Shown: positions 7,425-30,760 of the stretch, piece by piece
Layout: each line of letters begins with the position of its first letter
Numbering within the stretch: position 1 is the first letter of the stretch
IMG/VR virus record: IMGVR_UViG_3300020044_011666
Span: 1 to 44,105 of that record
Length of the DNA: 44,105 nucleotides
Reading direction: 5' to 3' (one strand)
DNA from: a virus
Taxonomy: Duplodnaviria > Caudoviricetes
The notes under the pieces: model-generated
The model's input: the letters and a program-made list of their open reading frames with translations, nothing else
What the model was told of the DNA's origin: nothing
Database searches by the model: none
Translations under genes and position numbers: made by a program

Positions 7425-8226
7425 TCACCCATGGACAAGTAGAGTACAAAGAGCAGTATTTATCGCTGCACAAGTAATACTTTGGATTGCCTCTCAATAA
7501 TGTTTCAATGGGTTGTTTATCAGAGGCAATTACTTCCATAGTTGCAAGCATACCATTGATAAGAGCCTTAGCTTGAGGCACACGAATAGGCATAGGCAGA
7601 ATCATACCTTCAGGTACTTTCTTTAGCACAACGCCTTGAATAAGCGCAGTGTGCACGTTTTCACCATTAGCTTCAGCTAATAGTTTATACGTAGACTGTT
7701 GCACAATATAAGACGAAGCTGTAAGTGCACGTTTACTTGTCTTAACATCCGCAAGCACTCCGTGGCCCAAATAGTCTACGGTACCGCCAATTTCTTTGAT
7801 AATTGGATTGTCTACATCGATACCAAAGAATTTTTCAACATGCTCTGGTATATCTGTAAAAGGTAGTATGTCTTCTACAAAAGCTTCTGTGCCTTTAATA
7901 ATTTCTACTGCTGCGGTACCGCTGCTTTCGCCGTCGTCGTACTTCATGCCTTTTTGTTCTTCTTCTTTCCAGGCCAACATTGCTGCATCAGTCATTGCAC
8001 CAATGTTTACTTCTTTTTTACCTTTGGCCATAGACTCAGCCCACATTTGTTCTACGCCGGCATGAATACTTGTACCAATAGCGGCACGCGAATTAGGTAT
8101 TGTTACAATACCTTCTAAAAACACTTTGCCCCATTGCCAAGAACAGTTATAAAACAGGTCAATTGCAGAAGGACGAATGCGAACATCAGTAGAATTAATT
8201 TGAATTGTTTGTTTCATTGCTAGCAC
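7408..8226 (-). CDS. PD-(D/E)XK (RecB/Cas4-like) exonuclease
   Basis: IRPSAI..C; GTSIH; GTVD; DVKTS; Q..Y; C-terminal CxxxxCxxxxxC. Confidence 0.85.
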   Translation of the reverse strand: MLAMKQTIQINSTDVRIRPSAIDLFYNCSWQWGKVFLEGIVTIPNSRAAIGTSIHAGVEQMWAESMAKGKKEVNIGAMTDAAMLAWKEEEQKGMKYDDGESSGTAAVEIIKGTEAFVEDILPFTDIPEHVEKFFGIDVDNPIIKEIGGTVDYLGHGVLADVKTSKRALTASSYIVQQSTYKLLAEANGENVHTALIQGVVLKKVPEGMILPMPIRVPQAKALINGMLATMEVIASDKQPIETLLRGNPKYYLCSDKYCSLYSTCPWVNGDAD

Positions 8227-8782
8227 CTTTTAGTAAGTTGAATGCGGCAGAAATTGTCTCAGCCTGAGCAATAGCATCAGACAAAGCATCGTGGGCTATT
8301 TTAGGACGAACAGAGAACTCGCCTGTAGACTTACCAGAGATTTCTTTAGCTAAATCTACAATAGTTCTCATAGACCGTTCTTCATAAAACTCCCAAGGCA
8401 CTTTGTGCCCGTATACACGCAAAGTATAGCCTAGATTAGCTAAATCAAACTGAGGATCCTTAGCCCACATACGATTATTGTTTGCACTACGTTCATAGCG
8501 ATACATTTGATGCATCCATGCTACTAATTGACGTATTGCATTTTCGCCGTCTACTTTGTTTTTCTCAAGTGCAAGATGAGCTTCTGCACTTTGCTTTGCC
8601 CACCAGTCAACAGTACTTTGTGACAATTCAAAGCGATTAATTAGTTCTGGCTTGTGATCAAGACTAACATAGAAAGAGTTTTTAACTTTGCCTGTGTTAA
8701 TATCAAACACACAAGCACCAATTGACAAAATCAATGCTCGATTTGTCAGCGAAAGGGTCTCGATATCGATTGATACATCCAT
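8195..8782 (-). CDS. DEDDh 3'-5' exonuclease (DUF5051/ExoVIII-like)
   Basis: IDIETL, ILSIGA, TVDWW.KQ, FDL, HDALSDA motifs. Confidence 0.85.
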   Translation of the reverse strand: MDVSIDIETLSLTNRALILSIGACVFDINTGKVKNSFYVSLDHKPELINRFELSQSTVDWWAKQSAEAHLALEKNKVDGENAIRQLVAWMHQMYRYERSANNNRMWAKDPQFDLANLGYTLRVYGHKVPWEFYEERSMRTIVDLAKEISGKSTGEFSVRPKIAHDALSDAIAQAETISAAFNLLKGASNETNNSN

Positions 8783-8796
8783 TTTTAGGACCTTTT

Positions 8797-8826
8797 AAAA
8801 ATGGCCTATACAAACGCATAGGCCTA
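8797..8826 (-). terminator. Probable intrinsic terminator
   Basis: Minus strand ggcctatgc-gttt-gtataggcc followed by attttt, directly after the dCMP deaminase gene. Confidence 0.55.
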
Positions 8827-8830
8827 ACGG

Positions 8831-9253
8831 TTAAAACACGGTGACGGTCACGGAATTAGACGATTTCAACAAATTTATGGCCCGTTTTTGATTCGAAAAC
8901 CACGAACTTGTTTCTTTAGGCATCGGCATGACCACTTTACTTATGTTTGCTTGTATAATTGCAGCAGCACATTTAACACAGCATGCTTCTGAAATATACA
9001 TAGTCCAGCCTTTGGTATCATCCGCATTAAAAATACAATTTAACTCTGCGTGAACCATTAGCTCATTTTTTTCTTCTTTGTTAGACAGTAATTCTTCACT
9101 GTCTATTATACCTCTAGGAAAACCGTTGTAGCCCCAACTAACTTTACGATTGTCAGGTGAAACTAATATGGCACCGACTTTTTTGCTAGGGTCTTTACTC
9201 CAATGCGCAATTTCTTGCGACAGTAAAATAAAGCGAGCATCCCATTTAGTCAT
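8831..9253 (-). CDS. dCMP deaminase
   Basis: SKDP..KVGA, GYNGFPRG, HAE, CCxxC (PCxxC variant); likely start MTKWD at 9253 rather than 9325. Confidence 0.9.
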   Translation of the reverse strand: MTKWDARFILLSQEIAHWSKDPSKKVGAILVSPDNRKVSWGYNGFPRGIIDSEELLSNKEEKNELMVHAELNCIFNADDTKGWTMYISEACCVKCAAAIIQANISKVVMPMPKETSSWFSNQKRAINLLKSSNSVTVTVF

Positions 9254-9542
9254 TTGGTACACAGCGGTCTTCTGCAAGAGTAGCGTATCCTGCAATGTCG
9301 TGCCAATGGTCTGGTTCATTTGCATTACCTGTACAAATACGAGCTGACTTGTGCATCACCATATCAAGAGCCTCTTTCTTGTCCGGTGACAGTGATTCCC
9401 AGCCAGGAGAGTTGCGTAAGATGTCTTTTAAGTCTTGTGCAATTTGCGCATTGACACTAAACTCGCCATGAGTATTACCGCGGGCTTTAAGAGTTGATTG
9501 TACAGACTTTACTGTTACTGCTTTAGTCGAGGTTCTGGCCAT
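9246..9542 (-). CDS. DUF6378/nucleotide-modification-associated small helical protein
   Basis: RG..HG.F ... K.ARI..G...DHWHDIAGYA.L signature. Confidence 0.75.
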   Translation of the reverse strand: MARTSTKAVTVKSVQSTLKARGNTHGEFSVNAQIAQDLKDILRNSPGWESLSPDKKEALDMVMHKSARICTGNANEPDHWHDIAGYATLAEDRCVPND

Positions 9543-10098
9543 TTAGTTCTGCCTCTGCTATAATTAGCTTAAGTGCTTCGGTTGGTGGAATATAGCTTTG
9601 GCCTTTGCCTTCAGATGAATACTTTTCACTGATTGCAATGACTTTAGCTGTTTTAGTGTTGTTGCTTACTACAATTGCTTCAAAAGCTTTTTTAGCTAAA
9701 GCTTCTGAATTCAATATTGCGCACACATGCACATAACAAGCACCAATAATTTGGTACAAGTTACCTACTGCAATATATGTGCCAGGCATCATTATCATGC
9801 TACGTATATTACCTGCAATACTTTCATGAAAAGCCATTTGCATTTGAAGCTCTTCATTAAACTTAATAATAGACTTTAGACTTTCTTCGCATAGCGGATA
9901 GCTGGACTTCCAAATAGCCCCAGCGGCAACAAAAGCTAGGTCTACAGTGGCATCGATAGCATCAATAGCTACTTCGGCGTCGTAATATTCTTTTAACTCT
10001 TCTTGCAGTAAAGACAAAGTTAAAACTGGCTCAAAAGTTTGAGAATACCGAAGCTTATTCCACTCACCTGCAGCAGCTATAAACTGAATTAGTTCCAT
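9523..10098 (-). CDS. All-alpha NTP pyrophosphohydrolase (MazG/PRA-PH-like)
   Basis: LLQEELKEY ... DATVDL.FVA.G acidic metal-binding motif; V..SN..K and Y.PP C-terminal motifs. Confidence 0.75.
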   Translation of the reverse strand: MELIQFIAAAGEWNKLRYSQTFEPVLTLSLLQEELKEYYDAEVAIDAIDATVDLAFVAAGAIWKSSYPLCEESLKSIIKFNEELQMQMAFHESIAGNIRSMIMMPGTYIAVGNLYQIIGACYVHVCAILNSEALAKKAFEAIVVSNNTKTAKVIAISEKYSSEGKGQSYIPPTEALKLIIAEAELNGQNLD

Positions 10099-10100
10099 TA

Positions 10101-10928
10101 TTAATCCTTAAGAAGAAATTCAACTTTAGGGCCAAAAGCCTTATAGTTGATAAGTGAAACATCAGAAGGTAAAAAGTCTACTAGTTTTTTACCTGGTTCA
10201 GCAGTGTAGCGCCACTTAGTTATAGGTATTCCATCATAATAAGAAGCATCGGAATACAGCTGTGCAAGTTGCGCTGCTTTTTCTTTATGCTCTTCGTAGA
10301 TGTGAGTATCTGCAAAGTGCATAGTGCACTCACCTGCTATTAAACCTGTTTCATTAGCTAAAGCGATTAACCACAGTGCTGCTAATATTGCATCAGCAGG
10401 AATACCTATCATTGTGTCAGCAGACCGCTGTATCCATACCATATGTAGAGTATTCCCGCGAACAATAAACTGATAAGCATAATGACAGCAAGGTAAACTA
10501 AGGTTATTATTAATAACGTTAGCAGGATTCCAACCAGATACAATAAGTCTGCGACTTTGCGGGTTAGTTTTAATTTCATTAGCTACCCACTCCAGTTGAT
10601 TCACGCCGTTGAAGTCTAACCAAGCATTACCGTAGTCTACTTTAATAGACAAGTCTTTTTCTGCCCATTTTTGCCAATAACCGCAGCCAAACTTAACAAA
10701 GTCCTCTAAAGCTTTAGGACCTCTTACTATAGCTGCAAACTCTCCAAACACTCCGCGGTAAAAGTATTCACGAGCTTGTAAAATAGGAAACTCTTTACGT
10801 AAATCAAAGTTAAGAGTTTGACCAATTAAGCTGACAGTGTTGCCATTACGTCCTTTAACTTGTTCTCCTGTTGCTAGTATGCTTAAAACAAGAGAAAAGT
10901 ACATGTGTTCAAAATTAGTGTGGGTCAT
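10101..10928 (-). CDS. Thymidylate synthase (ThyA) family protein, possibly dCMP-specific
   Basis: NPQSRR, LPCCH catalytic Cys, QRSAD..IG.PAD, DTHIY; Asp at the E. coli Asn177-equivalent position. Confidence 0.9.
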   Translation of the reverse strand: MTHTNFEHMYFSLVLSILATGEQVKGRNGNTVSLIGQTLNFDLRKEFPILQAREYFYRGVFGEFAAIVRGPKALEDFVKFGCGYWQKWAEKDLSIKVDYGNAWLDFNGVNQLEWVANEIKTNPQSRRLIVSGWNPANVINNNLSLPCCHYAYQFIVRGNTLHMVWIQRSADTMIGIPADAILAALWLIALANETGLIAGECTMHFADTHIYEEHKEKAAQLAQLYSDASYYDGIPITKWRYTAEPGKKLVDFLPSDVSLINYKAFGPKVEFLLKD

Positions 10929-11233
10929 TTCACTACTCCTAAATAATCTAAAGTAGGTAAATTGTCTACAGCTTCTTGCTCTGTAGAACCACTACCGTAT
11001 GTTTGTGTTTGTTCTATAGGAATAGCAGAATACCTAGCCATCCAATTGTTGTCATCGACTTTTACAGTCTCTACTTTATTCCAAGCAGTGTCTGTGTTAT
11101 CTAAACATTCAGGGTGACCTTCATGCGTACAATGACTGCAAGGAGGTGACATGTTGCAAGAGCAACCTCGGTCTTCGTAAGTGCTTTCAAACTCTTCTTT
11201 CCAACCTTCTGCTTCAAGAGTTAGCTTCTTCAT
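10925..11233 (-). CDS. Hypothetical Cys-motif protein
   Basis: GCSCNMSPPCSHC motif; likely start MKKL at 11233. Confidence 0.6.
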   Translation of the reverse strand: MKKLTLEAEGWKEEFESTYEDRGCSCNMSPPCSHCTHEGHPECLDNTDTAWNKVETVKVDDNNWMARYSAIPIEQTQTYGSGSTEQEAVDNLPTLDYLGVVK

Positions 11234-12929
11234 AAAATGCCATTCCATCAAGTTTATAGTCGTAGATATTAGGAATATCGTCGTTCTCAATATCTGCCCA
11301 ATTTTTACCTACTGCAACTTCTACCGGCATAGGTAAATCTTTTACTTTAAAACACTTTGACATTTCAAACCAAGCTAATTGCATGCACTTAGCTAAGTCT
11401 TTAGACACCGGAACATAAATATCAGCATTGTCATCGCATTCTAAAATATAAGAATCGTGCACAAAGTTGCAGATTAATACATTTTGCTCTTTGTATTTAG
11501 GGTAGTAGTCGCGCACAAAGTAGTGCATAGCTAATTTAGCTACTTCTGCACCTGCGCCTTGGTTTTCAATATTCAAAAAATCAGTGAGAAGTACCGCTAA
11601 ATACTCACGACCTAGTGGAGTAGAGTGAACCGCACCGCGTTTATACTTACTTATACCTGCTTGTTGCCATTGGTAAATTTCACGCCACAAATTGCGCCAT
11701 TTAGTTCTAGCTTTAATAGCATCGCTTTCAAGCATTGCAATATCCATTGTTTTTAACATTACAGTCAAAAACATATCAATACCACCGCCGTATACAAGCA
11801 AAAAGTTACAGCCTTTAGCTACTTGTCTATTCCATTTAGCTTTTGCTTTGTCTTCAGTCGGCCCAAACAACATTAAACTTGTATAAGCATGTAAGTCTTC
11901 GTCATCTCTGAATAACTTAAGCATTCTTACACAATGGGTTATTGCACAAATTGTGCGAAGTTCTAACTGCGCATAATCTGCATAAATCAAGACACGACCT
12001 TCAGGAGCTTCAAATACGCATTTTAATGCCCGTGGCAACTGCTGCAAATTTTGATCATCCGAAGTAAGGCGACCCGAGCGCGCAGACGGCTTAAACTTAC
12101 CGTAAATGCGTTCGCCTTGGAACTTGTCCATAAAGCTAAGTTGTTTTCTTAACTTGCGAACAAGTCTAACTCTAGCAGCGCGCTCATCACCTTCTTGTGC
12201 CATTCTAGCTAATGCAATGTCGTCAGACTCAGTAGAACCTAAATATTTGCGAACTTGCTGCCAAGAATTTACATTGATAGGTACTGCAGCTTTTTCAATT
12301 AACTCAAGATTTTCAGAGTACTTTGCATTAAGACGCTCTTGGGAAATAGGCATGCCATGCCATTGAAACAGCAAGCAGTTTTTCAATGCTGCAATATCCA
12401 GTTTATAACTAGGGGTGTTTTCAACATGCTTCACTTTAGCTAGTATATCAGGCATGAACCAAACATCCATTGCAGCATAGAGCAATTGATCATTGGTTAG
12501 TATTGGAGCAGCCCAATTTGACTTCTGTAAAGCGCTTTTGTCTAAACCTGCTTCATTATATGGGTCATGGCCAATACATGCCGCAACAACATCATCATAA
12601 GAATACGAATCAAGCCTAGGTAAAGCTAAACGAGACAATAAAAATGTATCTTCTATGTTGTCAGGAATCCAAGACTGCACACCATTAGCTTGACAAGTCG
12701 TAATTTCATAGTGCGCGTTGTGTGCAGCAAATGGCTTAGCTAAAAGTATTTGAAGTTGAAAGACTTCAGGCCAACGAACTAATAAAACTTCTGGCCATGA
12801 AGCTTGGTAAAATTGTGCCAGGCTTACTTCGCCGTACAAGCCAACCGTCTCAAAGTCTACGCAAAGTAAACGGTCGTCAAGTACAGCTGCAGCCACGTCT
12901 TGCAACGTGGCAAAGCGGTAGGGTACCAT
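11214..12929 (-). CDS. polA: Family A DNA polymerase with 3'-5' exonuclease domain
   Basis: DFET, HNAHYE, YAAMD exonuclease motifs; SGRL..NLQQLP; DYAQLELR; RQVAKGCNF..YG; VHDS. Confidence 0.95.
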   Translation of the reverse strand: MVPYRFATLQDVAAAVLDDRLLCVDFETVGLYGEVSLAQFYQASWPEVLLVRWPEVFQLQILLAKPFAAHNAHYEITTCQANGVQSWIPDNIEDTFLLSRLALPRLDSYSYDDVVAACIGHDPYNEAGLDKSALQKSNWAAPILTNDQLLYAAMDVWFMPDILAKVKHVENTPSYKLDIAALKNCLLFQWHGMPISQERLNAKYSENLELIEKAAVPINVNSWQQVRKYLGSTESDDIALARMAQEGDERAARVRLVRKLRKQLSFMDKFQGERIYGKFKPSARSGRLTSDDQNLQQLPRALKCVFEAPEGRVLIYADYAQLELRTICAITHCVRMLKLFRDDEDLHAYTSLMLFGPTEDKAKAKWNRQVAKGCNFLLVYGGGIDMFLTVMLKTMDIAMLESDAIKARTKWRNLWREIYQWQQAGISKYKRGAVHSTPLGREYLAVLLTDFLNIENQGAGAEVAKLAMHYFVRDYYPKYKEQNVLICNFVHDSYILECDDNADIYVPVSKDLAKCMQLAWFEMSKCFKVKDLPMPVEVAVGKNWADIENDDIPNIYDYKLDGMAFYEEANS

Positions 12930-14727: not shown

Positions 14728-15471
14728 TTAGTCAAGTACCGCAGTAAGCTTGTCTCTAGCAGACTCAAGTTGCGACTCTACTGGGTCTTTACTTTGCCTA
14801 ATAAATTTGCTAATTGCGTATTCTAATGACTGAATTTCTGACAAGGTAAAAGTAATACTTATAGGAGTACTAGGTAATAGAGCTGGTTGACTTACTTCTG
14901 GCTCTTCAACTTTATCCGCTCTTGCATTAGCTTGATCATCTGAGTAACTACCAGACTTATAACGGGCTTTGTCGCCTTTAAGTAGTTTATTCATGTTACC
15001 TTCAAGCACTTCTTCTCTTGTAATATCCATTGTATTACTGGTATAAAACTGATCTAATTGATGCCGACAAATGTCTGCAAGACTTAAAATTTCTTCTGTA
15101 TCAACAGACTTACCATACATAGTTAGCCTTTTTATTTTGTCTAGTAAATTACCTGTACTAATTAACAAATCGTCGCATAATGAAGAAGAGCTTTTCATTT
15201 TAACAATGCCATCAGTTGGTATAGTTCTAGGGCCTGCCTCTAAGCCTTGATAAATACCTTGTAAATAGAACTCATAATCTCCGAGTTCTTCTACTACATT
15301 AGTTCGATCATTTAACAAGCAAGCTTCTTTAAGCTCAGCAACTTCTCCAATTGCACCCAAAATCATATGAATTAAGTGCATGCTTGTAGCTTTCATTTGA
15401 GTTAAAATGAGTTCGCCTGGCTTAGCTAAGTCTTTTACCATTTGAACAAATTGCAACAATAGTTCTTTCAT
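14728..15471 (-). CDS. MazG-like nucleotide pyrophosphohydrolase
   Basis: GEVAELKE...EELGD..FY; N..KL...RY..G.YS...A..RADK. Confidence 0.8.
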   Translation of the reverse strand: MKELLLQFVQMVKDLAKPGELILTQMKATSMHLIHMILGAIGEVAELKEACLLNDRTNVVEELGDYEFYLQGIYQGLEAGPRTIPTDGIVKMKSSSSLCDDLLISTGNLLDKIKRLTMYGKSVDTEEILSLADICRHQLDQFYTSNTMDITREEVLEGNMNKLLKGDKARYKSGSYSDDQANARADKVEEPEVSQPALLPSTPISITFTLSEIQSLEYAISKFIRQSKDPVESQLESARDKLTAVLD

Positions 15472-22293: not shown

Positions 22294-23298
22294 CTACAGT
22301 TTCCACTTTTTAGACTGCGCAATAAGAAAAGCCATACGTTTAGCACCAGCTTTACGGAAATACGAACGGTTTGTTTTAAACCATTCAGCTATTATTTCGT
22401 TAGGCTGTGGAACGCGATAAGCAGTTCTAACACTGCCGCTTTGGCTATAGACACTGTAAAAGCTGTGAGAGACGTAAGTGCCTCGGTAGCCTGACAATTG
22501 TTGGCTATAAGTGACTGGTGCACTTTCCATTTTGTTTGCTAATTTAACACAAGCTTCTAACAGAGGTTCGGGTGCTTCTATTGCACTAAAACCGCTAAAG
22601 TCATGCACTTCTTTTAATAAGCCTTCTGCAATATAATCCCAACGCTCTGTATCGCACCAGATTCGTGCAATTGCTTCGGCCAAGGCGTATGGATCAGACA
22701 CACGGCGATCGCGTTCTAAAGAGATTTGAGACGGTTTTAGATTGTAGCTATGCTTATAGTTCATGGAAGCAATTTTAAGCCCGCCAACATATAAACAATC
22801 CGAGCTGTTGGGTACAATACCAAAAGGATGATCTTTAGCTAAATGTAAGCTGTTAAATTCTGCAAATTCTTCTGCTGTGCATTCAAACTCAATCATTGTA
22901 CCGCCGACGTAATTGCTTACTTCAGTACAGTCAAAGCTAAGTATTTCTAGACCTAGGCTATCTTCCCACCCAGGAGCAATATAGTAAGAACTATGTATGT
23001 CAGGCTCACGACCTTCACGAAGTAAAACTAATATAGCTAGTTTAAGCCCTTCTCCATGAGTACCAATTGCATCTGGGTTGTCTCGCTTACTAGACTCGCC
23101 CATATACAAAGCAGCAATAGGTAATTCAGTACTAGTTGTAATGCTACAAGAATACCTACTTGAGCCTTCAATTGGGCTTAAAACTATATGCCAGCTTTCA
23201 GGATCACTGTCAATAGCGTTTTGCACAAGTTCACGCATGGCATCTTGTACAGTCCAGTCAGGTATGTAATTGCGGGTAATGTTAGTTTGAATTTTCAT
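22294..23298 (-). CDS. GHKL (HATPase_c/MORC-like) ATPase domain protein
   Basis: RELVQNAID (N box); MGESSKR...IGTHGEGLKLA (G boxes); GGT.IEF. Confidence 0.8.
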   Translation of the reverse strand: MKIQTNITRNYIPDWTVQDAMRELVQNAIDSDPESWHIVLSPIEGSSRYSCSITTSTELPIAALYMGESSKRDNPDAIGTHGEGLKLAILVLLREGREPDIHSSYYIAPGWEDSLGLEILSFDCTEVSNYVGGTMIEFECTAEEFAEFNSLHLAKDHPFGIVPNSSDCLYVGGLKIASMNYKHSYNLKPSQISLERDRRVSDPYALAEAIARIWCDTERWDYIAEGLLKEVHDFSGFSAIEAPEPLLEACVKLANKMESAPVTYSQQLSGYRGTYVSHSFYSVYSQSGSVRTAYRVPQPNEIIAEWFKTNRSYFRKAGAKRMAFLIAQSKKWKL

Positions 23299-23836
23299 TT
23301 ACTTGTTCCTTTATTAAAGGTATATAAGCTTTTGTAAAGCCATTAGTTGGTGTGCTAAGATCAAAATTAGCAATAATAAACTCAATAACTTCATTAGGAT
23401 CTGTGTCTTTTGAAAACACTATATTTGGGCCGTGTTTGTCAAGCATAACAGCATAGATATTGCCAAACTTAGTTAAGCCATTTACAGTGTTTTGCCCGCA
23501 CTCATGGCTACCACATTCGTATTGCCATTGACTTTGTACAGGTATGTTGTATTGTGCATTTTCTTTTAGAGGGCAATGAAAATGCACAATACAATCAAGT
23601 TGAGGATATGTATCAAATATTATTCGTTGAGACTGACCACCAACACTAGGCTTAACACCATAAGCAATAACAGAATCATCACCGTCTGTTTTTACTAGCA
23701 CCATGCCATTTGACTCAATAAAGTTAAAGTTTGTTTTGCGTATGCTAGTTAAAAATAAATTACTGGCCAACTTAGCAGCAAAATGACCTGTTGTTACGCC
23801 ATTAAATTCTTTGTAAGCCCTTGAGCAACGCACCAA
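23282..23836 (-). CDS. Class II aldolase/adducin-like domain (probably the C-terminal half of a split fusion gene)
   Basis: GHFA.K...FLTS.RK; KPS; IVHFH Zn motif; AVMLDKHG. Confidence 0.65.
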   Translation of the reverse strand: MVRCSRAYKEFNGVTTGHFAAKLASNLFLTSIRKTNFNFIESNGMVLVKTDGDDSVIAYGVKPSVGGQSQRIIFDTYPQLDCIVHFHCPLKENAQYNIPVQSQWQYECGSHECGQNTVNGLTKFGNIYAVMLDKHGPNIVFSKDTDPNEVIEFIIANFDLSTPTNGFTKAYIPLIKEQVNENSN

Positions 23837-24534
23837 TTAATAACAGTGCGCAGATTTGCAGGAACTCTTTTGTCTTGCCAAGGCACAGGAGTACCCTCAA
23901 TAACTGTAGACCGAGTAAAAGAAAGATGGCTACGGTTATACGCCATATCTATAATCATTTGCAACAAGTGTTCTCTTGTTGCTTCGTATACACCTTCTTC
24001 AGGTGTTATTATCATGTTGCTATGGTGCATAATATCGTTAGCTAAAACTAAATTTAAAGAACAACGCTTTAGCAAGTCTAGTCCTTTAGCAAATTGCTCA
24101 GACTTAGATGCATTATAAGTAGTTTTAAAGCCTACAACAAAAATATCTTTACGATGCTTACGTATTTTAGCTAAGGTTTTTTCTTGTATGCCTAATAACT
24201 CTGCAGCGTAGTCTTCTTTACTGCTAAGTCTTTGCCAAGGAGAATGAACTTTTAAGTGGAAATCTACCATGGCAATGCTAAATATAATAATTTTTACAGT
24301 ATTGTCGTTTACTAAGCTAGTTATATACGCATCAACGTCTAAAGTAGACTCTAATTTAGACGTAGAATCTGCCATTTTAGTTAGCACTAACTTAGTAGTT
24401 AAATTAGGAAATTTAAGCTCTGCCAAATCTGCTAGTTTACGAGCAGTTGTACCGTAGGCTACAGAGCTAATCGACAAATGTGGTCTAACTTTATTACTTG
24501 TACCACCGCCAAGTATGACAATTTGCTTTTTCAT
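23794..24534 (-). CDS. CoaB/DFP-like (phosphopantothenoylcysteine synthetase fold) protein
   Basis: ILGGGT...S..AYGT.ARKLA; A.VDF; K.LAKI; VVGFK; LVLAND match the DFP C-terminal domain pattern. Confidence 0.7.
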   Translation of the reverse strand: MKKQIVILGGGTSNKVRPHLSISSVAYGTTARKLADLAELKFPNLTTKLVLTKMADSTSKLESTLDVDAYITSLVNDNTVKIIIFSIAMVDFHLKVHSPWQRLSSKEDYAAELLGIQEKTLAKIRKHRKDIFVVGFKTTYNASKSEQFAKGLDLLKRCSLNLVLANDIMHHSNMIITPEEGVYEATREHLLQMIIDMAYNRSHLSFTRSTVIEGTPVPWQDKRVPANLRTVINWCVAQGLTKNLMA

Positions 24535-25070
24535 TTGCTCATTTGCTCCTTAAGAATTAGTTGTTCAACATAGTCAAGTACGGCTTGTTGCTTAGTAGTG
24601 CCGTGACCTGTAACATTATTGGCGTTAGCAGTCCAAATAATTTTGCCTTCAGGTTTGTACAGTGTATAAGCAGAGTAATATTTTTCTACGTCTGCAAATC
24701 TTTTAGGCATTGTGCCAGTATTGATAATATGACGGACTAAATCTGCAGCTTGTTGAGCAGTTACATAAGCTGGATGAGCGTCCCAAAACTTATTGGCACT
24801 TATAGAGCTGCCGAAATAACAAGCAACGTGAAAATTCTGTAGATCTCTTAAATCTTTAAGGCCTAAAAAACCCGCTAAGTTATCTAGGCGCCAATTATTG
24901 TTTATAGTGAGCATAGCATGACCTAATATACAAGCGCTAGTGCCACAAGAAGGATAGGCTTCAATTAGCTTGCTGTACTCATGAATTGTTTGGTCTTTTA
25001 TAGAAATAAGACGAGTTAAATTAAAATCAAAAGACTTAGCTAAATGATACTCGAATTCTTTAGGTGTCAT
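24531..25070 (-). CDS. CGTSAC-motif hypothetical protein (paralog 1)
   Basis: CGTSACILGHAML; VTAQQAADLVRH; likely start MTPKE at 25070. Confidence 0.7.
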   Translation of the reverse strand: MTPKEFEYHLAKSFDFNLTRLISIKDQTIHEYSKLIEAYPSCGTSACILGHAMLTINNNWRLDNLAGFLGLKDLRDLQNFHVACYFGSSISANKFWDAHPAYVTAQQAADLVRHIINTGTMPKRFADVEKYYSAYTLYKPEGKIIWTANANNVTGHGTTKQQAVLDYVEQLILKEQMSK

Positions 25071-25191
25071 GTTAGTTCCTAGGCGCAACGAATTGGCACA
25101 GAGACGTTTGGGAAAATAGTTGTTAGAGTAATATTTAATAGCTAGGCTAACAACTAAGATAAATAAAACTAATAAATAAGTTTGTTACGTA

Positions 25192-25374
25192 TTAGAATAA
25201 CCAAATAGCTATGTCGCCCGCGGCAATGCCTACAAGCATACAAAACAACACAAGTGCAAACACTATTTTTCCTGCTAAATTGTTTTCTAGCCTTTCCATT
25301 ATATAAGCACTTAAAGCTACTATAATTAAAGTTTGTAAACAAGCAAAGAACAGCTTACTAAATAATTCAACCAT
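25192..25374 (-). CDS. Small two-TM membrane protein
   Basis: Two hydrophobic helices; likely start MVELF at 25374 after GAGGAG. Confidence 0.55.
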   Translation of the reverse strand: MVELFSKLFFACLQTLIIVALSAYIMERLENNLAGKIVFALVLFCMLVGIAAGDIAIWLF

Positions 25375-25822
25375 AGTAAAACTCCTCGCAATCTTTATAA
25401 TTATTAGGTAGTTCATCGTTTAGGCGAATGTGCCGCAAAACATTTGCTGCTTGGTAAGCAGTTACTTCATTTTTAGGGCGGCAACCATAAAATAGAAAGG
25501 ATTCTGAGTTTGACCAACCACAAATAGCAAATTGTAACTTGCTTAAACCACTGTCATAGTTAGGTAAAACTTTTTTAGCTAGCTCAAATAAATTAAAGTA
25601 ACTATTTTTTTCTTCTAGCATAGCATGTCCCAAAATGCAAGCAGAAGTACCACACTCATTAAACGTAGCAATTTGTGCTTGTAATTGATTTGAGTCGTTC
25701 CAAATAGGCAAATCTAGCTCTTTAGCTTTGCGCATGTCACTAGATACAGCAGTACTAAGATTAAATTTATCTGCGTGAGAAACTAAACGTTTTTCTAGTC
25801 GCTCTATAAAGTGTTTGTCCAT
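25367..25822 (-). CDS. CGTSAC-motif hypothetical protein (paralog 2)
   Basis: CGTSACILGHAML; VTAYQAANVLRH. Confidence 0.7.
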   Translation of the reverse strand: MDKHFIERLEKRLVSHADKFNLSTAVSSDMRKAKELDLPIWNDSNQLQAQIATFNECGTSACILGHAMLEEKNSYFNLFELAKKVLPNYDSGLSKLQFAICGWSNSESFLFYGCRPKNEVTAYQAANVLRHIRLNDELPNNYKDCEEFYYG

Positions 25823-25898: not shown

Positions 25899-26399
25899 TT
25901 ATACAGCGGCTTGGTGTGCTTGAAGCTCTTCAAGAGTGTCAAACAATACAACGCCTTCAGGTGCTGCAATAACAATAGCTTTTTCTGCATCCAGGCGAGC
26001 AATTTCAGCACCGATATCAGCTTGTGCAATTTCACCTGAGGCAACTTTGGTCAGCAATTCATCTTTTGCTTTTTTGTACGCATTTTGTTGCTTGGTCCAT
26101 GCGTTCAAGCCAGCTTTGCACATGCTGTTGTAACCAGAAGGAGTGTTAGCTTTCTTACCAGTTTCAGTGACACGAGGGTCAAACCATTTTTGGAAATAGA
26201 AGCAACGAATGCCAACAACTTCACCCGCTTCGTTTTTGTGGAAAGTAGTAGCACGACCGCCACCGCCTTCGCCCACACGAGCTTTGGTCAACTCGGTAAT
26301 TTCTTCCATAACGTCAGAAACGCGCACTTTAGAGTTAGCCGCAATTGCTGCAGTCAATACGGCGAGGATTGGTTCAAAGACTTTCTTAGTTTTGCTCAT
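25899..26399 (-). CDS. Early hypothetical protein, paralog of 27717-28286
   Basis: CFYFQKW...G.NSMCK.G.N.WTKQQ; own -10 (TGTATAAT near 26475) and terminator. Confidence 0.8.
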   Translation of the reverse strand: MSKTKKVFEPILAVLTAAIAANSKVRVSDVMEEITELTKARVGEGGGGRATTFHKNEAGEVVGIRCFYFQKWFDPRVTETGKKANTPSGYNSMCKAGLNAWTKQQNAYKKAKDELLTKVASGEIAQADIGAEIARLDAEKAIVIAAPEGVVLFDTLEELQAHQAAV

Positions 26400-27671: not shown

Positions 27672-28337
27672 AATGACTACAAATAAGTACTTTGCCTAAG
27701 ATGGTTTGATTAAGAATTAAGATGGAACGTTCCAATCGTCTTCTTGTACTTTTGCAACTTTCTTTGCCTTAGCTTTAGTTACTTTAGGCTTCACAGTTTT
27801 TGGCACTTCTACAGCTTCTAAACTATCAAGCAAGTCATCCAAAGAATCAAATGCAGTTGGGTAAGACTCTGCATATACTATTGAGTCTTTGGTAGCCGCA
27901 ATCTCTTCTTGTACAACACTTAGTTGATCAATTGGCAATTCACCAGTAGACAACTTAGTTAACAACTCAGTTTGAGCTTTCTTAAACTCTCTTTGTTGTT
28001 TGGTCCATTGATTCACCCCCAACTTGCACATTGAGTTCAAACCAGTGGTTGTACCGGCTTTTGCACCGTATTCGTGGTCAGCAACAAGTTCCCACTTCTT
28101 ATGATAGTAGCAAAAAACTGCAATTACTTTGCCGTTCTCATCTTTATAAGAAGTTGGACCATTAGAACCACTTGCAGTCTTAGAACTCATTAGTTCAATT
28201 AGTTGAGGCATGAGTTCACTAACCAGTTTGTCTTTGTTAGCTGACAACAAGGTGTTCAATTCATTAAATACTTTTTTGATTGACATAATATTACTCCAAA
28301 GGGTAGTGTTATGACAAAGTACTTATTTGTAATCATT
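27672..28337. repeat. 23-bp inverted repeat pair flanking ORF 27717-28286
   Basis: 27672-27694 aatgactacaaataagtactttg matches the reverse complement of 28315-28337 (aatgattacaaataagtactttg) at 22/23. Confidence 0.85.
27717..28286 (-). CDS. First early gene, hypothetical, paralog of 25899-26399
   Basis: GGAG RBS; CYYHKKW...GLNSMCK.GVNQWTKQQ; Lys-rich tail. Confidence 0.8.
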   Translation of the reverse strand: MSIKKVFNELNTLLSANKDKLVSELMPQLIELMSSKTASGSNGPTSYKDENGKVIAVFCYYHKKWELVADHEYGAKAGTTTGLNSMCKLGVNQWTKQQREFKKAQTELLTKLSTGELPIDQLSVVQEEIAATKDSIVYAESYPTAFDSLDDLLDSLEAVEVPKTVKPKVTKAKAKKVAKVQEDDWNVPS

Positions 28338-29024: not shown

Positions 29025-29049
29025 TAAAAGGCAGTCATAAACTGCCTCC
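29025..29049 (-). terminator. Intrinsic terminator after TerL
   Basis: Minus strand aggcagt-ttatg-actgcct followed by a U-tract. Confidence 0.7.
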
Positions 29050-29056
29050 GTATTAC

Positions 29057-30760
29057 TTAAACATCATGACCATTTTGCTTCCTCTGCTTCGACCCACCTC
29101 CCTTTATCTTGCCAAGCGCATCTTGTAATCCAACAGCAATTTGACGCAGTACATCAGCTCCATGAGAGTACTCATTATGCAAAGGAGTTGCCTTCCATAC
29201 TTCTTGCTTCTCATCCCACTCTTTAGTATAGTTTAGCATGCAAGACATCATGTATTTACACTTAGCATCAACCCATAAAGACTTTATCATTTGCTTAACC
29301 ATCTCAATGCCCTCAGCTATTGAAGACTTAGGCAATACTCGGATACTAGGATTCCTACCCTTTAGCTTAAGCAACTCTTTCACTTTATCCAATCTAGTTC
29401 TAGCCTTACCAGCGGCGGTTCCGCCTGTTAGTTCACGCACCTGGATATCATGGGGAAATACAAGGCTATTTACTTCAATACCTTGTTCAAACGCGTAATC
29501 TAAATAGTGTTCTATGTCAAAGCCATTGTTCCAGTACTCACCTATGATTCTAAACTCACCATCATAATACTGCACAAATGCTAGCACAAAATAATCGTCC
29601 ACCCCCAAGTCAAAGTAAACCTCAACCGGTAAGTTTACATCATACAAGTCATGCATAATACGACCATTGCCAACTACGTGCACATTGAACAATCTTGAGT
29701 AATATGTACCGTCGCGTGTTGCAGCAAAAGCTTCTTCAGGAGTTGCAGGATATTCCTGATACACATCTTCGCCCAATTCACGGCGTTGAACAATCCAGAA
29801 ATTCTTCTGCTCATTAGTTAGCTTAATACCTAAAGTAGCTTCTAGCTTAGTAAAGTACTGTGCTGCTTTGTCATCAATAACTTGATCAACAGGTTCAACA
29901 CAGTCTGGGTCTTCAACCCAAGGCAAGAATACTGGCTTGAAGTCCTTCTCTGACAACGGCCCGGATGCTTGTGCTACTATAGCTGAGTCCCACATGATTT
30001 TGAACATGTTAGCACCTTCAGCGGTGCTTTCAATCGCTCCAGTGTTACCACGGCCTAGTGCCTGCAAAGTACCAGTCTTTGTTTCTTTAGCTCTTTTAGG
30101 GTTTTCATTAGCTATCTTACCAAACTCAGATATGTGCAACCTTTGCAGTGTCGTAGACCGAAATGACACACGAATAAACACTGTACTGTGGTTAGAAAAA
30201 GCTAACTCTTTAGTGTTGTCTTTCTTTAGCTTAATGCCTAGCGACTCTTTAATCTGCGGATCAAAGTTATCCCACAGAAACTTAGAACGTTCTAGCAGTG
30301 TCATTGCTTCGGCAGCACCTTGTGCCATCAAACCAATGTTTAAAAACGGGCAAAATAAAGCATCATCAAAAAACGACACTAAGAAAAACGTAGATATACC
30401 TTGTTGGCGAGACTTTAGGATAATAATACGAGGATGTTCACGAGTTGCAGAGTAGACTCGATGCTGAGCATAGTTCATTCTAAACTGAACAGCTTTACCG
30501 TTCTTGTCTACCACTTTGTAGAGGTTATTTAACCGCCACAGTTTTGAACGTAAGTACAAGCGTTCAAAGTCTGCATCAGTAGTTCCAGCAGGTGGAGGGT
30601 TGTTATAGCGGTTATACAGCCCAACTAAGTCAGGGTATAACTTATTGAATACTACTTCAGTTATACGAAGTTTGTTAGGCTTACTGGTCAGACTCGGGAG
30701 CGTCACTAAGCCAGCTTGAGTATCTATGATTACCGGTTGAGTCATAATTGTTCTGCACAT
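29057..30760 (-). CDS. terL: Terminase large subunit
   Basis: MNYAQ, LKSRQQGIST (Walker A), LHISE (Walker B), ESTA, QEYP, FDLGVDD and HGAD nuclease motifs; start uncertain. Confidence 0.93.
   Translation of the reverse strand: MCRTIMTQPVIIDTQAGLVTLPSLTSKPNKLRITEVVFNKLYPDLVGLYNRYNNPPPAGTTDADFERLYLRSKLWRLNNLYKVVDKNGKAVQFRMNYAQHRVYSATREHPRIIILKSRQQGISTFFLVSFFDDALFCPFLNIGLMAQGAAEAMTLLERSKFLWDNFDPQIKESLGIKLKKDNTKELAFSNHSTVFIRVSFRSTTLQRLHISEFGKIANENPKRAKETKTGTLQALGRGNTGAIESTAEGANMFKIMWDSAIVAQASGPLSEKDFKPVFLPWVEDPDCVEPVDQVIDDKAAQYFTKLEATLGIKLTNEQKNFWIVQRRELGEDVYQEYPATPEEAFAATRDGTYYSRLFNVHVVGNGRIMHDLYDVNLPVEVYFDLGVDDYFVLAFVQYYDGEFRIIGEYWNNGFDIEHYLDYAFEQGIEVNSLVFPHDIQVRELTGGTAAGKARTRLDKVKELLKLKGRNPSIRVLPKSSIAEGIEMVKQMIKSLWVDAKCKYMMSCMLNYTKEWDEKQEVWKATPLHNEYSHGADVLRQIAVGLQDALGKIKGGGSKQRKQNGHDV

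Follow-up and report, generated by a model that had tools for sequence, protein, structure and literature searches.

The window, by which we mean the whole 44,105-bp stretch of IMG/VR record IMGVR_UViG_3300020044_011666, is a complete virus record with direct terminal repeats, and it carries a compact run of five genes, all on the minus strand, in which neighbors overlap or sit a few bases apart. They are, in order, a thymidylate synthase (TS) homolog (10101..10928; PF00303, E 9e-52), an all-alpha (PRA-PH/MazG-like) dNTP pyrophosphohydrolase (9523..10098; PHROG 671, E 2.5e-7), a four-helix DUF6378 protein (9246..9542; PF19905, at the cut-off), a protein of the dCMP/dCTP-deaminase family (8831..9253; PF00383, E 2e-16, with HAE and CxxC motifs), and a 3'-5' exonuclease (Rv2179c-like/DEDDh; 8195..8782; PF16473). 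The open reading frame (ORF) of the deaminase extends from 8831 to 9325 in the ORF finder's output, and a likelier start at the ATG at 9253 gives a protein of 140 residues. These family matches bear out the gene order in the original prediction, which had read the run as a cytosine-methylation or alternative thymidylate cluster. It had also placed the run just downstream of the polymerase, which is right in order and needs one correction: a 121-residue ORF of no recognized family (10925..11290) lies between the TS and the family A DNA polymerase (PolA; 11214..12929, minus strand). PolA, identified by family match, is a conserved neighbor upstream of the cassette, present in 71 of the 88 loci that we compared (the window, 7 GenBank genomes, and 80 IMG/VR loci; a redundant set). 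The exonuclease adjoins the cassette in the window, and we rejected it as a stable member of the module, since it occurs in only 17/88 loci, in many of which it lies kilobases off.

The TS is the only one in the genome, with no second PF00303 match in the window. Aligned to solved ThyA sequences through the motif LSLPCCH...QRSADTMIGIPAD, its residues L145, C148, H149, D171, and D179 correspond to Escherichia coli L143, C146, H147, D169, and N177, the last being changed to Asp (codon GAT at 10392..10394, minus strand) at the position that sets dUMP/dCMP specificity. In alignments, D179 falls opposite the Asn of the solved ThyA sequences and opposite the Asp present in the enzymes of Xp12 and PaMx74; other features of the fold are kept (Cys146 together with R21, R126, R127, R166, S167, H207, and Y209, in E. 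coli numbering). The predicted Asp variant is confirmed: Leu143, Cys146, His147, Asp169, and Asp177 are invariant in 88/88 loci, of which positions 143-147 were selected for by search patterns spanning the LPCCH stretch and positions 169 and 177 were not. Asp177 confers a preference for dCMP, N177D switching ThyA to this substrate (PMC13326640; PMC8670742, section 11); at position 143 an acidic residue goes with hydroxymethylation and Leu with methylation, and D169N marks the 5-hydroxy-dCMP synthases (PMC13326640). The enzyme accordingly departs from canonical ThyA (Asn177), from T4-type hydroxymethylases (acidic 143, here Leu in 88/88), and from the RB69/DLP3-type 5-hydroxy-dCMP synthases (D169N, here Asp in 88/88). 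These residues support a dCMP-modifying enzyme, predicted to be a 5-methyl-dCMP (5mdCMP) synthase, or dCMP methylase; the product is narrowed to 5-methyl, rather than 5-hydroxymethyl or 5-hydroxy, because Leu143 and Asp169 are kept. Where the original prediction had allowed either 5-methylcytosine (5mC) or 5-hydroxymethylcytosine, support falls on the former, and the retained Leu143 counts against the latter.

The pyrophosphatase has the invariant residues E33, E34, E37, and D53 of an EExxE..D motif. The window protein gives no PRA-PH match of its own, while its homologs match PF01503, and its profile aligns with the PaMx74 cassette enzyme (probability 93%, E 2.6e-7). With its structural model (pLDDT 88), the best Foldseek match is the staphylococcal-phage protein 5mil (probability 1.0, TM 0.53/0.63, E 0.11); a profile search of PDB sequences returned a designed protein only. 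Membership in the all-alpha NTP-pyrophosphatase family, as predicted, is sound at the superfamily level only, judging from motif and modeled fold, and its likely substrates are dCTP and/or dUTP. Outside the cassette, at 14728-15471 (minus strand), lies another MazG-like pyrophosphatase (PHROG 229), found in 2/88 loci including the window. The deaminase has human dCMP deaminase and PBCV-1 7fh4 as its best PDB matches and is 35% identical to the Xp12 cassette deaminase. Standing in cis with an Asp-type TS, it has the genomic context of the PF00383/PF14437 deaminases known as mSCD, and by analogy with these it is predicted to produce dT nucleotides from methyl-dC nucleotides.

The neighborhood of TS, pyrophosphatase, deaminase, and PolA is already published for Xp12 and PaMx74 (MT664984, JQ067093), so that what is added here is a lineage and not a mechanism. 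In metaviromes, 104/149 deaminases on contigs with modified cytosine lie beside a TS, as against 17/277 on unmodified contigs, with PRA-PH and PolA as the top neighbors; 5/7 Asp-type TS enzymes assayed made 5mdCMP, and the deaminase mSCD-B5 makes dTTP from 5mdCTP and is inactive on monophosphates (bioRxiv 10.1101/2024.12.05.627091). The same authors describe the logic of Xp12 as full 5mC substitution combined with dTTP supply through deamination, and Xp12 DNA is 100% 5mC and resistant to about 90% of Type II enzymes (PMC7653180). The window resembles Xp12 and PaMx74 in having, in one block and with no second TS, an Asp177 TS adjoined by a PRA-PH-type pyrophosphatase and a PF00383 deaminase (35-36% identical to theirs), as well as a small helical domain, which in those phages is Nmad1-like and fused to the pyrophosphatase; all are PolA phages with no recognized deoxynucleoside monophosphate (dNMP) kinase family. 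It differs in gene order, in its separate DUF6378 gene, and in lacking the dihydrofolate reductase (DHFR) that stands in one row with PRA-PH, TS, and deaminase in Xp12 and PaMx74. Those genomes are also of 59-64 kb at 68% GC, whereas the window is a 44-kb podophage with a P22-like portal and 38% GC. By sequence, the window cassette belongs to the known Xp12 type as a variant whose TS falls in a separate clade.

We consider it probable that the window encodes an Xp12-type cytosine-replacement cassette, in which dCMP would be methylated, 5mC built into DNA in place of C, and dTTP supplied by the deaminase. Genes, residues, neighborhoods, and word statistics are observed here; the activities are read from them. 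The TS would make 5mdCMP with host folate, whose recycling would be left to the host; the pyrophosphatase would clear dCTP and/or dUTP, returning dCMP; DUF6378 may phosphorylate 5mdCMP, a step that we put at slightly under an even chance and that a host kinase would otherwise perform, with a host kinase completing the triphosphate in either case; and PolA would insert 5mdCTP. By analogy with mSCD-B5 and Xp12, the deaminase would convert 5mdCTP, or perhaps 5mdCMP, to the thymine nucleotide, probably at the triphosphate level, and so replace a dUMP-type TS. Plain 5mC is predicted because the 53 window ORFs scanned gave no match to a glycosyl-, carbamoyl-, or dioxygenase family. The phage would thereby be protected from most Type II restriction enzymes.

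The original prediction had set two models against each other, a modified genome and a reversed route to thymidylate through 5mdCMP. These are most likely two halves of one pathway and not alternatives, because Xp12 runs both, and the characterized deaminase acts on the triphosphate rather than on 5mdCMP. Its observation that neither DHFR nor a dNMP kinase could be recognized holds among the same 53 ORFs, many of which have no family at all, and a Walker-A scan of the window found two helicases, the primase, and one chance match in the exonuclease. Its further argument, that the missing kinase favors the reversed route or reliance on host enzymes, fails, because no Pfam dNMP-kinase family was recognized either among the scanned ORFs of Xp12, which has full 5mC substitution, and because a candidate kinase lies inside the cluster.

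Comparison across the lineage, including the co-occurrence check that had been proposed, shows the deaminase to be tied to the Asp form of the TS. Of the dereplicated Asp-TS loci, 53 extend 7 kb or more downstream, and 48 of these have the deaminase, as do 0/3 clade members with Asn at this position (the 4.7-kb fragment L128, with the slot visible, the 20-kb G044, and the complete G043). The pyrophosphatase, present in 40/53 loci, is not obligatory. VPMS1, Kolga, and G010 (98% complete) have an Asp TS and no PF00383 match, Dcd-type deaminases being outside this search; with no phage-encoded route from the TS product to dT, that product is likely wanted for itself. Among the Asn177 genes of the clade (L128:1165-2240, L165:5220-9125, and L304:9509-10734), none is accompanied by a deaminase; a DHFR gene lies near the TS of L165, and L128 carries DUF3310. 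On the TS tree, L128 falls within the Asp members, a placement that suggests reversion to a dUMP enzyme.

As an indirect test of DNA modification, we further compared restriction-site avoidance, taken as the observed/expected ratio (O/E) of C-containing 6-bp palindromes against a maximal-order Markov expectation. The window has an O/E of 0.93, with 1/36 words depleted and CCWGG at 41 occurrences vs. 40 expected, and 12/12 Asp-TS genomes (30-48% GC) fall between 0.88 and 0.98. Three TS-less records of the same lineage (G001-G003) have ratios of 0.59, 0.40, and 0.45, with 19-26 words depleted and CCWGG seen 1-2 times vs. 51-61 expected. Asn-TS members have 0.77 (the complete G043), 0.88 (the fragment G044), and 0.36 (the third), so that palindromes are avoided in 5/6 relatives without the Asp enzyme (0.36-0.77), the sixth standing at 0.88. 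The 47 Asp loci of at least 12 kb range from 0.76 to 1.02, and a relative with a carbamoyltransferase (G004) has 0.94; G041 (0.62) was left out because its TS state was not established. Neither four-base palindromes nor CpG content separated the Asp from the control groups. Over the whole window, GpC is enriched (1.55) and CpG low (0.70), with CCWGG at expectation. In the whole genomes of PH1 (L002) and VPMS1 (L005), GATC occurs 3 times vs. 81-85 expected, and C-containing palindromes are not avoided.

Several observations weigh against replacement of cytosine by 5mC in the window. The TS shares only 26% identity with the enzymes of Xp12 and PaMx74, and it keeps His147 and Gln165, which are changed in both (147 is Pro there); position 147 ranks second among the sites that distinguish modified from unmodified contigs (PMC8670742, section 11). 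A replaced His147 is a differential site and not an established requirement for 5mdCMP synthases. Single N-to-D mutants that keep this His prefer dCMP, and its removal improves them. For this clade, 5mdCMP synthesis is predicted from residues, and in the published screen 2/7 enzymes predicted to make 5mdCMP yielded none; its authors also find 5mC selectivity of the deaminases to be polyphyletic and unreadable from sequence (bioRxiv 10.1101/2024.12.05.627091). The solved folds nearest the pyrophosphatase lie among dUTPase entries, and a degenerate homolog of it occurs in one Asn-TS relative as well. In the palindrome comparison, the Asn fragment G044 equals the lowest Asp genome at 0.88, so the groups are not separated there; the controls number only six, from hosts not identified, and one is just 4.7 kb long; Xp12 (0.89) and PaMx74 (0.86) are themselves somewhat depleted; and the window has a single CCSGG site (CCCGG 1, CCGGG 0; O/E 0.22).

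Three other readings of the cassette account for parts of this evidence. Were the pathway a reversed thymidylate route only, with all 5mdCMP deaminated to a thymine nucleotide and canonical cytosine kept in DNA, one would expect the tight linkage of deaminase to the Asp form, its absence from the three Asn relatives, and a window with no recognized kinase family. We judge this improbable, and it is disfavored as a stand-alone model by the Asp-TS genomes without a PF00383 match (VPMS1, Kolga, and G010) and by the palindrome data, in which Asp genomes do not share the avoidance seen in TS-less relatives; in Xp12, moreover, the route coexists with full 5mC substitution. Ordinary dTMP supply, in which the His147-keeping clade would methylate dUMP despite its Asp and be fed by a dCMP deaminase and a dUTPase, has in its favor that these three enzymes form a textbook trio, that His147 and Gln165 are as in ThyA, and that 5mil, among the nearest solved folds of the pyrophosphatase, ranks beside dimeric phage dUTPases. 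It is nonetheless very improbable given that Asp177 is invariant in 88/88 loci, that N177D turns ThyA to dCMP (PMC13326640; PMC8670742), and that the three Asn members have no deaminase, the opposite of what dUMP supply would predict. Cytosine might instead be replaced only in part, or by a base other than plain 5mC: the distance of the TS clade from Xp12, the many ORFs of no family, the indirect case for dCTP removal, and a relative with a carbamoyltransferase cassette in the same slot all leave room for this. Leu143 and Asp169 are invariant, however, and no transferase family was found in the window, and we hold this reading, too, to be improbable.

That relative (G004; L109:11781-15564) has a divergent TS, a GNAT acetyltransferase, and a carbamoyltransferase in the slot together with the same deaminase, pyrophosphatase, and DUF5664, the TS-carbamoyltransferase type being one described in PMC8670742. 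It is also a further hint that DNA is modified in this lineage. Its genome has no GATC vs. 113 expected, and the GNAT gene may add a further modification.

Returning to the 5mC cassette, its kinase step may be supplied by DUF6378. We surveyed the slot near the TS in 77 TS clusters dereplicated at 95% identity, most loci being partial genomes, and found DUF5664 (PF18909) in 36, DUF6378 in 20, an Nmad1/DUF1599-like gene in 10, a P-loop NMP-kinase-like gene in 8, and DUF3310 in 1. Exactly one of the five families is present in 75/77 clusters, none in 2 (truncated loci), and two together in none; the gene lies within about 1 kb of the TS in all but four clusters. This exchange among five families near the TS is a new observation. 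On the TS tree (FastTree), P-loop slot genes account for 7 changes and sit next to carriers of DUF6378 or DUF5664, and an independent-pairs test could draw on only 3 pairs with strong branches; all agreed with the prediction, but their number is too small for a significant result (P = 0.25). The kinase label of these P-loop genes is firm in L027 (PF21448, E 4e-14) and weak in the others (E 6e-4 to 0.07, or no match). Directly after the TS in L128 stands DUF3310, a domain tied to the T7 gp1.7 nucleotide kinase (PMC10700055, PMC11897194). In the TS-less G002 and G003, a thymidylate-kinase-like P-loop gene lies between PolA and the nuclease, where G001 has DUF6378. Fusions occur as well: the Nmad1-like domain is fused to the pyrophosphatase in Xp12 and PaMx74, a thymidylate-kinase-like domain in L056, and DUF6378 to the deaminase in 2/120 longer matches, a fusion also found with DUF5664. 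The Nmad1-like domain of Kolga matches the C-terminal domain of the Xp12 pyrophosphatase (E 3e-14).

The pattern is one of nonorthologous displacement, from which DUF6378 is predicted to supply the kinase step. That it is the seemingly missing dNMP kinase is a tentative proposal, to which we give a little less than an even chance; the broader one, that DUF6378, the Xp12 Nmad1/DUF1599-like domain, and perhaps DUF5664 are non-P-loop 5mdCMP kinases or pyrophosphoryl transferases, is somewhat more doubtful. No Pfam dNMP-kinase family was found among the scanned ORFs of Xp12. A 5mdCMP kinase induced by Xp12 was reportedly described in 1982. An early idea that DUF6378 is a dCTPase was set aside once P-loop kinase-like genes appeared in its slot.

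We put at an even chance that DUF6378, whatever the nature of the rest of the pathway, either acts as a further dNTP pyrophosphohydrolase or plays no part in it, with host kinases phosphorylating 5mdCMP instead. Its commonest replacement, DUF5664 (36/77), behaves in vitro, in the form from a Z-genome phage, as a slow pyrophosphohydrolase (kcat 0.05-0.48 per s) that yields monophosphates from dATP, dUTP, and dGTP (PMC12884076). DUF6378 itself is a widespread domain, estimated to occur in roughly 1,700 viral stretches, and is not modification-specific, because it lies near a TS in only 2/80 unselected loci; in one Nmad1 cluster (L014-16), a further small P-loop gene lies at a distance of about 10 kb. 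Searches by fold, profile, and atlas found no clear homology of DUF6378 to any kinase. Its residues R21, H64, K65, R68, D78, and D82 are invariant. The protein has no Walker A motif, and its four-helix model (pLDDT 85) gave nothing usable in Foldseek (best E 1.7) and, in VIA-align, a best Z of 7.1, in the range of generic helical bundles; an atlas search matched only DUF6378 or unnamed clusters; and its profile was negative against DUF3310, DUF5664, the pyrophosphatase, and P-loop kinases (E 0.3-0.7) and borderline against Nmad1 (HHalign E 0.07, then 0.03). Against a nonkinase role stand its replacement by P-loop NMP-kinase-like genes in 8/77 clusters and by DUF3310 in 1, and the TS-less relatives, of which two have a thymidylate-kinase-like P-loop gene at this place and one has DUF6378. 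The word “kinase” is absent from the main text of the DUF5664 paper (PMC12884076). Within paper titles and abstract openings, subscription journals lying outside this scope, no function has been assigned to DUF6378.

The hydroxymethyl-dCMP system of T4 (gp42, gp56, and gp1) likewise combines an Asp177 TS-fold enzyme with an all-alpha pyrophosphatase working at the nucleotide level. The window differs in having Leu rather than the acidic residue of T4-type enzymes at 143 (PMC13326640), and it has no glucosyltransferase, second dUMP-type TS, or P-loop kinase. The MetaGPA modules and mSCD-B5 share with it the Pfam neighborhood, the residue rule, and the logic of dTTP from 5mdCTP; in those assays T4 gp1 was supplied, and no cognate kinase is named in the parts of these reports consulted (PMC8670742; bioRxiv 10.1101/2024.12.05.627091). 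T7 gp1.7/DUF3310, too, is a small phage domain with no P-loop that has been linked to dNMP kinase activity (PMC10700055, PMC11897194), but it phosphorylates dTMP and dGMP and has no clear profile similarity to DUF6378 (HHalign E 0.4). The 5mC cassettes need a modified-nucleotide kinase yet mostly show none. The one-of-five exchange offers a concrete prediction for common phage DUFs, and with it small candidate enzymes for making modified dNTPs; if the kinase reading is right, the kinase step of 5mC phages would be named and DUF6378 given a function.

The phage is a Kafunavirus-like podophage, encoding a P22-like portal, a family A polymerase, a ligase, helicases, and a primase. Its capsid protein matches only 12 records in the phage collection (57-74% identity), including Edwardsiella KF-1, IW-1, ETP-1, and ZHX (Kafunavirus), Pseudoalteromonas PH1, Vibrio VPMS1, Dickeya Amaethon, and two spring metagenome phages. 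KF-1, Amaethon, PH1, and VPMS1 share the order of PolA, TS, and pyrophosphatase, along with every diagnostic TS residue. The deaminase is fused to DUF5664 in KF-1, PH1, and Amaethon, and VPMS1 has DUF6378 and no deaminase. In these phages, as in the cultured Pelagibacter phage, the enzyme with these residues is annotated as plain thymidylate synthase, and we found no report of modified DNA in Kafunavirus-like phages, within the same literature scope as above (PMC8472413). If the 5mC and kinase readings both hold, the whole Kafunavirus-like lineage and Kolga would be 5mC-genome phages by way of a second, His147-keeping dCMP-methylase clade. Restriction-resistant genomes of this kind would matter for the host range of the cultured phages and for their use against pathogens of fish and plants. 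Kolga, a Pelagibacter SAR11 phage (L006; MT375529), has at 29043-30697 an Nmad1-like gene, the Asp TS, and PRA-PH, with no deaminase. In L011 (9098-10801), an Asp-type TS and a 5'-3' exonuclease domain share one open frame of 567 residues.

Elsewhere in the window, a DFP ORF (phosphopantothenate-cysteine-ligase-like, PF04127) and an ORF resembling class II aldolases (PF00596) have 43 bases in common at 23282-24534 (minus strand), and the pair resembles one gene split by a frameshift near 23820; the DFP part has relatives in Pseudomonas and Caulobacter phages, annotated as hypothetical proteins. The genes at 25899-26399 and 27717-28286 (minus strand) are paralogous early-region genes of the same family (PHROG 10459), and those at 24531-25088 and 25367-25822 have a common CGTSACILGHAM motif.

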